From Escherichia coli (GTDB taxonomy: Bacteria > Pseudomonadota > Gammaproteobacteria > Enterobacterales > Enterobacteriaceae), in NCBI RefSeq assembly GCF_016903815.1, contig NZ_CP069973.1: a stretch of DNA of 64,000 nucleotides; one strand, given 5' to 3'. The notes under the pieces are model-generated. The model was not told the origin of the DNA. It made no database searches and saw nothing but the letters and a program-made list of their open reading frames with translations. This document shows, piece after piece, positions 32,397 through 33,854 of this stretch. Made by a program: the position numbers and the translations under genes. Position 1 is the first letter of the stretch; each line of letters opens with the position of its first letter.

Positions 32397-33854
32397 ATGA
32401 CAATTTCAAATTCGAATTTATTGAAACCGTTTATTACTGGTAGTGAGTTGCCACCTTTTAAAGAGGATGTCTTTTCTAAAACAGAAGAACAATTTAAAAA
32501 AAGCCCCCATGGCAAATTGCTTTTCATTTCCGGAAATGAAAACTTAGTAAACATTTCAGCGGAAAAAATCGATGAAATAAAAAATAGCAAAGATTTCTTT
32601 TCAAACATTGTAAATATAATAATTTTACTCATTAAGCATCCTGATAAAATTCTGCCCATTCTTCATGGTTGTCCTGCAGAGTCCATCGAACTCATTAAGA
32701 ATGCGAAACGAACGGGGCAATGGTCATATGAGATGACTGATAAGAACGGGCAGAGTATTGAAGTGTCCTATATTTTCACTGATACCATAGATAATAATTA
32801 TGATGGAAAATTATGCTTAAAAATCTGTAACCCCTGCAACCAAAATGATTCTAGTACACATGAATATAAAATAGATCATCAACAGTTGAAAAATCACATA
32901 AGGCAACTTGAGGAGTGGGCCCTTCTTGAAAAGTTTTATGATAACAACGCTTATTATTCTAAACGTACAAAACAATTAGAGAAGAAAATTGCCGATGCGG
33001 GGTTTATAACAGGGAAGGTTAATGCCGATAACTTTAATGTAAAAGAGTTTAAAGACGATATAGCCTCGATGCTTTGTGAACAGCCCCCCATGCGTACACA
33101 CCAGATTTCTTCATCCGGATACTTATCTGCCGATAAAGTGCCCGATCTCTATAAGACAAATTTGAAAGACGCGCAGAGAGATCTGAAAACAACACCGGTT
33201 GACATCGATGGTGTTAGTCTAAAACCAAAAACTCGGGAAAAAATTGCGGAAAAAATTGCGAAAAAAACTGAGGAAGAAAATGCGAAAAAAATTGCGAAAC
33301 AAAATGCGAAGACCATTGAGGAGAAGAATAGTGAAAAAAACAAGAAAGAAACAAATCCTGAGGATAATTTTGTCTTAAAATTCTCACCGGAAGAAATCAA
33401 TGAGATGCTCCTGGATTACAGCGATGAAGAACAAAAAAAATTAAGACCTTTTTTCACTAGTGATCATATCTATTGTTTGTTTGATGCTTTTAGTCAGGGT
33501 TTGTATAATGTTGCTCGTAATGGCAGTCCACGGTATGCAGGTTTACTACGTCAAATAGCATCCAAGTGTGCGATATTACAAGATTTTGATCAACAATTGT
33601 TCTGGCGCACGTTTTCAGGAGGAGTCTTCCATCGACGTATCTCTGTGAACAGCGAGCCAGAAAAGACAGATGTATGGCGATTCAGTACACAATTTGATTT
33701 TCCATATATAAATGAAAACGGAGAGTTGTCCAGAACGGTACTCATGTTCGAGGGGGTTGCTGAAAGCAACTTTAAAGATATCGCCAATCATTCCAGCGAA
33801 TGTTTTTCTTACAGCTGTTATGCCGCCCCGCTGGATGCGAATGCTAAAAAATAG
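32397..33854 (+). CDS. hypothetical 485-aa protein on an AT-rich islet; candidate type III effector-like protein
   Basis: Not part of the K-12 malZ-acpH junction as I recall it; AT-rich codon usage; good RBS (GGAG, 8 nt upstream); Ser/Asn-rich N-terminus; K/E-rich repeat segment; weak N-terminal resemblance to SopD-family effectors (..KDFF.., ..ILHGC..). Confidence 0.7.
   Translation: MTISNSNLLKPFITGSELPPFKEDVFSKTEEQFKKSPHGKLLFISGNENLVNISAEKIDEIKNSKDFFSNIVNIIILLIKHPDKILPILHGCPAESIELIKNAKRTGQWSYEMTDKNGQSIEVSYIFTDTIDNNYDGKLCLKICNPCNQNDSSTHEYKIDHQQLKNHIRQLEEWALLEKFYDNNAYYSKRTKQLEKKIADAGFITGKVNADNFNVKEFKDDIASMLCEQPPMRTHQISSSGYLSADKVPDLYKTNLKDAQRDLKTTPVDIDGVSLKPKTREKIAEKIAKKTEEENAKKIAKQNAKTIEEKNSEKNKKETNPEDNFVLKFSPEEINEMLLDYSDEEQKKLRPFFTSDHIYCLFDAFSQGLYNVARNGSPRYAGLLRQIASKCAILQDFDQQLFWRTFSGGVFHRRISVNSEPEKTDVWRFSTQFDFPYINENGELSRTVLMFEGVAESNFKDIANHSSECFSYSCYAAPLDANAKK
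33237..33308 (+). repeat. imperfect 12-nt tandem repeats inside the 485-aa ORF
   Basis: GAAAAAATTGCG-like units repeated about six times, encoding (E/A)KIAKK-type lysine-rich repeats. Confidence 0.7.

Follow-up and report, generated by a model that had tools for sequence, protein, structure and literature searches.

An in-frame 12-nt variable number tandem repeat in an orphan gene carried between malZ and acpH in Escherichia coli

Described coding repeats and the present locus

About 30 candidates for in-frame coding variable number tandem repeats (VNTRs) have been mentioned for Escherichia coli K-12, and few of them have been studied (PMC3477136). In E. coli tolA, an in-frame tract of 15/18-bp repeats lies within the Lys/Ala-rich, helical domain II of the protein (Zhou, Michiels and Aertsen 2012, PMC3477136). 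The tolA tract was found in 8 to 16 copies among 234 isolates, it contracts at a rate of 6.9e-5 in a RecA-dependent and MutS-independent manner, and its copy number alters stress and phage phenotypes (PMC3477136). Here we describe an array of 12-nt units at positions 33237-33308 of a 64,000-nt stretch of E. coli DNA (contig NZ_CP069973.1; "the window" refers to this whole stretch), which lies inside a 485-aa open reading frame (ORF) that is the single gene of an AT-rich islet between malZ and acpH, and which differs in copy number among strains. This gene is referred to as the orphan gene, and its product as the orphan protein.

On the comparison made here, the tolA tract appears to be the closest described case, the likeness being one of architecture and of mode of variation. 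Both are arrays of imperfect in-frame repeats, the unit in each exceeding the size of mismatch-repair loops (15/18 bp in tolA, 12 bp in the orphan gene). Each codes for a Lys/Ala(/Glu)-rich segment, alpha-helical in TolA and predicted to be so in the orphan protein, that joins two parts of the protein, and each shows natural polymorphism in whole units, 8-16 for tolA and 6-12 for the orphan array. In contrast, the orphan protein gave no match to a TolA family in the Pfam and NCBIfam scans and there is no sequence relationship between the two. TolA is a core envelope protein, whereas the orphan protein is accessory and known from sequence alone; in addition, the orphan array is the shorter one and has only two perfect units.

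In the VNTR of NeuO, the repeat unit is a heptanucleotide; at most copy numbers the reading frame is lost, and the repeat acts as an on/off switch. Like the orphan array, this repeat of the polysialate O-acetyltransferase of E. coli K1 (PMC3046976) is a coding VNTR in an accessory E. coli gene, and its copy number sets the length of a repetitive segment. Unlike NeuO and the classical contingency loci, the 12-nt unit of the orphan array never shifts the frame. In-frame VNTR loci are also used for typing of E. coli and O157 by multiple-locus VNTR analysis (MLVA), for which short tandem repeats of strain-variable copy number, often located within ORFs, are chosen. The orphan array is likewise a strain-variable short tandem repeat within an ORF, but the locus did not turn up in the literature searched, where ECs0454, Z0503/Z0504, a malZ-adjacent VNTR and the repeat strings returned nothing relevant; since the array is uniform in the sampled O157:H7 genomes, it would discriminate poorly within the O157:H7 clone.

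Charged single alpha-helix (SAH) linkers are E/K-rich, helical segments placed between folded parts of proteins. The peptide encoded by the orphan array is E/K-rich, predicted to be helical and located between protein parts as well, but K and E make up only 53% of it, and I, A, N and T occur at fixed positions. The i to i+4 pairs in the array comprise 8 of opposite charge and 7 of the same charge, and the hydrophobic moment peaks at 90 rather than 100 degrees, as a period of four residues would give by itself.

An in-frame array that varies by whole units

The original prediction, made from the letters of the window, was that in-frame tandem 12-nt units are located at 33237-33308, and this was confirmed. 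The sequence and the ORF translation show six head-to-tail, in-frame 12-nt units in this segment, which lies inside the plus-strand ORF at 32397..33854, position 33237 being a first codon position of that ORF (offset 840, divisible by 3). The core units read, in order, GAAAAAATTGCG GAAAAAATTGCG AAAAAAACTGAG GAAGAAAATGCG AAAAAAATTGCG AAACAAAATGCG, and are followed by the degenerate units AAGACCATTGAG GAGAAGAATAGT GAAAAAAACAAG AAAGAAACAAAT; the encoded peptide is EKIA EKIA KKTE EENA KKIA KQNA, then KTIE EKNS EKNK KETN. Perfect tandem duplication is limited to the first two units (33237-33260). Tandem Repeats Finder reported 33238..33310 with a period of 12, 6.1 copies, 80% matches and a score of 90, together with weaker rows of period 24/48 that extend to 33340, and a repeat search found 8 in-register copies at 12-nt spacing from 33217 to 33348. 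The lag-12 identity was 0.80 over 33237-33308 and 0.68 over the longer span 33237-33356. When the segment was shuffled, lag-12 identity fell to 0.38 +/- 0.05 (mononucleotide shuffles) or 0.41 +/- 0.07 (codon shuffles), and 0 of 10,000 shuffles reached 0.80; codon shuffles of the whole ORF reached a maximum of 0.60 in 2,000, none being as high as the observed value. The signal is the strongest of its kind in the 64-kb window, where the runner-up is 0.58. The tandem repeat at 33237-33308 is therefore real, beyond chance and in frame.

The array had also been described as a lysine-rich (E/A)KIAKK array. Its richness in lysine was borne out, since 30% of the encoded segment is K, while the motif was not: the core is built of a tetrapeptide unit, [E/K][K/E/Q][I/T/N][A/E/S], the segment is Glu-rich too (23% E), and the array continues as a degenerate extension to ~33356. 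An antisense ORF at 33149..33400 (83 aa, Phe/Ser-rich) was set aside as a mirror image of the poly-A-rich repeat, without support. Phased A-tract DNA bending was rejected as the primary explanation of the array, because A-tracts spaced by 12 bp are out of step with the helical repeat, and because the strict in-frame conservation points to coding constraint.

Allele lengths were compared in an alignment of 14 alleles, the window allele and 13 fetched ones. The lengths of the coding sequence (CDS) were 1434, 1446, 1458 and 1470 nt, in addition to a divergent allele of 1386 nt. All in-frame insertions and deletions in this alignment lay within 33236-33328 and all were multiples of 12 nt, in agreement with the claim that changes in repeat number would alter the length of the protein without a frameshift. 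Repeat number was also compared among homologues, as had been proposed, and it is not the same in all of them: the 120 database homologues were 469, 473, 477, 481, 485, 489 or 493 aa in length, and splitting their arrays into tetrapeptides showed whole-unit differences, from 6 to 12 units. For a population sample, 60 genomes were taken at even steps through the 1,125 matches to a 350-nt query spanning the array. The match was 338 nt long in 28/60, 350 nt (the length of the query) in 18/60 and 362 nt in 8/60, and the remaining six consisted of three frameshifted genomes, two with the divergent allele and one with a truncated match.

The same kind of change was seen more than once. One GAAAAAATTGCG copy is missing (alignment gap 33236-33247) from three of the aligned alleles (L003, L006 and L009), which lie on three different allele backgrounds as judged by flank distances. 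Alleles L004 and L009 show 0/0 flank differences and are identical over the rest of the CDS, and they are one unit apart. On the major 489-aa background, with 0 aa differences outside the array, at least five distinct one-unit variants were found. These include deletions in three registers, namely EKTA+KKNS to EKNS (P0030), loss of EKTA (P0037) and EEIA+KKTA to EETA (P0054), as well as duplications of EKTA (P0092) and of KKTA (P0099). Derived one-unit variants of this kind are rare. Much of the length variation follows allele lineages, but several of the changes are recent and recurrent. Recurrent one-unit changes on identical backgrounds look like the signature of slippage or of unequal recombination between neighbouring units. 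Judged by allele comparison, the locus has the properties of an in-frame coding VNTR: tandem repeats, a kept reading frame, whole-unit polymorphism confined to the array, and independent recurrence.

We consider it likely that the locus is a nearly neutral in-frame VNTR, driven by slippage or recombination, in a charged, probably helical linker of the orphan protein. In this explanation, some ten imperfect 12-nt units encode a charged Lys/Glu/Ala/Ile segment, probably alpha-helical, located between two conserved parts of the protein (residues 1 to ~270 and ~330 to 485). Adjacent units would mispair during replication or recombine unequally, so that whole units are gained or lost, and since each unit corresponds to four codons the frame is always kept, giving alleles with 6 to 12 tetrapeptide units. 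Most of this variation would be tolerated, because the gene is dispensable and under weak constraint and the segment would serve in it as a spacer.

The orphan protein and its islet

The 485-aa ORF, for which the counterpart in O157:H7 strain Sakai is ECs_0454, is preceded by GGAG at 32386-32389, 7 nt 5' of its ATG. The named sources of its homologues were E. coli, Shigella dysenteriae and one Escherichia sp. An exhaustive HMMER search for distant relatives among 1.84 billion representative proteins returned only fragments of the same protein, and two scans for degenerate motifs, covering 100,044 species-representative genomes, gave 0 matches, so that no other species could be added; the islet is evidently missing from the genome that represents E. 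coli. Pfam gave no significant match for the protein, and its sub-threshold matches (Cas_CT1975, QRICH1 and DUF3700) were attributed to compositional bias, as they were all confined to the K/E-rich residues 272-371. A PADLOC match to Cas7e on the same segment (E = 0.061) was not significant. There was no match in NCBIfam, PHROGs gave a single family of unknown function at E = 0.006 that was not counted as significant, and E was above 1 throughout a PDB sequence search. On these comparisons the protein is an orphan restricted to Escherichia/Shigella, with a variable centre between its two conserved parts.

The structure of the protein was modelled with AlphaFold2, both at full length and for residues 271-485. 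The mean predicted local distance difference test (pLDDT) score was 41.8 for the full length and 48.3 for residues 271-485, too low for a fold search. In both runs residues 277-303 formed a helix, with a pLDDT of ~75 and of 55-65, while the remainder of the models was unreliable. The array peptide (cf. EKIAEKIAKKTEEENAKKIAKQNAKTIEEK) is thus predicted, with the reservation due to such models, to be alpha-helical.

The original prediction regarded repeats of this type as typical of surface or secreted proteins, a view that found no support in the case of the orphan protein. By inspection of hydropathy, and not with a dedicated predictor, no hydrophobic core of a signal peptide was found (the first 25 residues have a mean hydropathy of -0.09), and by the same inspection no convincing membrane segment was seen, the top 19-residue hydropathy being 1.56 in a stretch interrupted by K, H, P and D. 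Pfam, NCBIfam, PHROGs, PADLOC and PDB revealed no surface, anchor, adhesin, autotransporter or effector domain.

As a separate observation on the conserved N-terminal part, an invariant CX3CX2C (C140, C144 and C147; CLKICNPC) is found at residues 140-147 (32814-32837). Its cysteines are spaced as in the radical-SAM cluster motif, but there was no radical-SAM match in Pfam; it is probably a coincidence or a different metal site.

The islet was delimited by comparison with K-12 MG1655, in which malZ ends at 424332 and acpH at 424337, the two stops being 4 bp apart. In the junction alignment, homology to K-12 stops at the malZ TAA and restarts at the acpH stop. The GC content is 31-40% within the islet and 50-58% in the flanks, and the neighbouring genes in the window are proY, malZ, acpH (minus strand), queA, tgt and yajC. 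A count over the 5,426 complete E. coli genomes found the islet in 1,127 (~21%), always in the chromosome and at the malZ-acpH site, and with its ORF annotated in every case as a hypothetical protein. The coordinates of the islet and of the features of the orphan gene are collected in Table 1.

Table 1. Coordinates in the window of the islet, the orphan ORF and the repeat features
Feature	Position	Strand	Basis
AT-rich islet, 1,663 bp, malZ stop to acpH stop	32212..33874	.	K-12 comparison, junction alignment, GC
485-aa orphan ORF, ECs_0454 family	32397..33854	+	ORF list, RefSeq annotation of homologues ("hypothetical protein"), upstream sequence
Array core, six 12-nt units EKIA EKIA KKTE EENA KKIA KQNA	33237..33308	+	Tandem Repeats Finder, repeat search, shuffle tests
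Perfect tandem duplication, GAAAAAATTGCG x2, most slippage-prone spot	33237..33260	+	sequence, allele alignment gap, flank distances
Degenerate continuation, four units KTIE EKNS EKNK KETN	33309..33356	+	translation, Tandem Repeats Finder period 24/48 rows, lag-12
A7 tract within degenerate units; A8 (frameshift) in O145:H28 12E115 and strain 95-3192	33334..33340	+	
A8 tract 3' of array; A7 (frameshift) in two strains of different allele background, TUM14759 and OkiPb01695	33433..33440	+	

Several further observations were made at the edges of the islet. An inverted repeat at 32245-32290, inside the islet and 34 nt past the malZ stop, has 20-nt arms that are 85% complementary and a 6-nt loop, and may be the malZ terminator or a REP-like hairpin. 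If it does terminate transcription, the orphan ORF would need its own promoter in 32291-32396. No sigma-70-like site was seen by a simple promoter scan of the 185-nt gap 5' of the ORF, and a search of 32000-34100 against Rfam was negative for both strands. At the other junction, the 3' end of acpH (33875-33900) reads TCAGAGCGCC in the window and TTATAACGCC in K-12, at 3338-3360 of the K-12 locus L015, and as a result the stop codon and the last residues of AcpH differ between islet carriers and islet-less strains. In addition, the annotations of OkiPb01695 and UCPROB-002 give malZ as frameshifted, representing either a real pseudogene or an assembly error.

Selection, inactivation and competing explanations

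To the repeat the original prediction had attached diversifying selection, and the data do not bear this out. The ratio of nonsynonymous to synonymous polymorphism (pN/pS) was 0.51 for residues 1-270, 0.97 for residues 321-400 and 0.42 for residues 401-485, and outside the array the gene appears to be weakly constrained (pN/pS about 0.5). Within the array pN/pS is nominally 3.7, a value for which the synonymous differences, added up over all pairs, number only 7 and the repeat register is ambiguous, and for these reasons positive selection was rejected as a reading of it. Nucleotide diversity peaks at 0.057-0.063 in and just before the array, compared with 0.007-0.037 over most of the gene.

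The ORF is intact in most of the ~1,100 carrier genomes, and the repeat region was matched only partially in about 30 of 1,125. A change from A7 to A8 at 33334-33340 causes a frameshift in two O145-type assemblies, 12E115 (O145:H28) and 95-3192, which have the same allele, and a change from A8 to A7 at 33433-33440 does so in TUM14759 and OkiPb01695, which have different allele backgrounds; some of these A7/A8 frameshifts could be homopolymer sequencing errors. In WCHEC4533, the ORF is split by IS1 (L019 1033-1730; after window position ~32927) in an allele otherwise 100% identical to that of the window. In O55:H7 strain USDA5905 (L014 1094-2834), a deletion fuses a truncated malZ to what is left of the orphan ORF, its final ~336 nt, and the repeat and most of the gene are gone. 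A divergent allele of 461 aa was found in JX21CE8 and SM107 (L013 488-1873 and L020 797-2182), the two copies being 1 aa apart. In this allele the array and the adjoining ~100 residues (window ~33236-33600) are swapped for a shorter non-repetitive sequence, while the N- and C-terminal parts are similar; its centre looks like a mosaic or recombinant central cassette. Since the 461-aa allele without the array keeps both conserved parts, the array is dispensable for an intact ORF. The gene itself is dispensable, as it is lacking in ~79% of complete E. coli genomes and has apparently been inactivated independently several times. The weak constraint, the repeated inactivation, the repeat-less allele and the uniform length in O157 together favour tolerated, mutation-driven variation over diversifying selection.

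By analogy with TolA, the helix could instead be a functional spacer or ruler, with unit numbers favoured by niche and the polymorphism kept by opposing selection. The three common length classes, each settled in many genomes, would fit such length tuning, as would a charged, predicted helical segment between two conserved parts, and in TolA the in-frame copy number does alter stress tolerance and phage susceptibility (PMC3477136). However, ~79% of the complete E. coli genomes lack the orphan gene, several lineages carry it as a pseudogene, a repeat-less allele exists, and the common length classes track allele lineages, as descent alone predicts; on balance we regard length tuning as unlikely. 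A further possibility is that the protein is a surface-exposed or secreted antigen with a repeat that varies by diversifying selection, whether immune or phage-driven. The diversity peak at the array, the nominal array pN/pS above 1 and the presence of this AT-rich accessory islet in pathogens such as O157:H7 could be read in this way, and the N-terminus, which is Ser/Asn/Thr-rich and has no acidic residue before position 17, is compatible with a putative type III secretion signal. The antigen explanation is nevertheless very improbable in our judgement, because no Sec signal peptide or transmembrane segment was seen by hydropathy, and no surface, anchor, autotransporter or effector domain by Pfam, NCBIfam or PDB; the array pN/pS has the weakness noted above, ~26 O157:H7/O55:H7-type genomes are uniform in length, and the gene is carried by strains of many hosts and sources. 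We give similarly little credence to the idea that the ECs0454-family orphan would function as a secreted or injected protein, such as an effector or toxin that has escaped recognition, in which the helix would be a length-tunable spacer between two novel domains and the unit number would be selected by niche.

Least credible of all is an on/off contingency locus, in which the repeats would switch expression by phase variation. The frameshifts at A7 and A8, the latter tract being affected on two allele backgrounds, are what such a locus might produce. Yet 12-nt units cannot shift the frame, and the indels in the array are all multiples of 12; the A7-to-A8 change that 12E115 and 95-3192 have in common, on the same allele, looks lineage-fixed and not like switching, and one-base differences between assemblies at homopolymers can arise from sequencing error. 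For phase variation to be efficient, tracts of the size of A7 and A8 are short. Furthermore, variation among close relatives, as would be expected of a switch, was not seen among the O157:H7/O55:H7-type genomes, which have one length.

A nearly neutral VNTR, changing by slippage or recombination in a linker, remains the explanation that we favour, and the following points weigh against it. Repeat length is uniform in the ~26 sampled O157:H7/O55:H7-type genomes, suggesting that the rate of unit change is modest, which in turn agrees with the imperfection of the array, where no more than two units are perfect. Three length classes dominate (28, 18 and 8 of 60), and this could reflect selection for particular lengths. 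The array pN/pS, unreliable as it is, leaves room for selection, and the role of the segment as a helical linker is suggested only by low-confidence models and by composition.

In-frame VNTRs are a known kind of coding polymorphism, and what is new here is a case in an uncharacterised orphan gene; the current understanding of repeat biology is unchanged. The practical use of the locus is limited, as it is a possible coarse allele marker for islet-carrying strains. Overall, these results verify a further member of the small set of in-frame coding VNTRs of E. coli, and they flag a lineage-restricted orphan gene without detectable relatives (ECs_0454 in O157:H7 Sakai) as a candidate for functional study, the orphan protein with its two conserved parts being more intriguing than the repeat.
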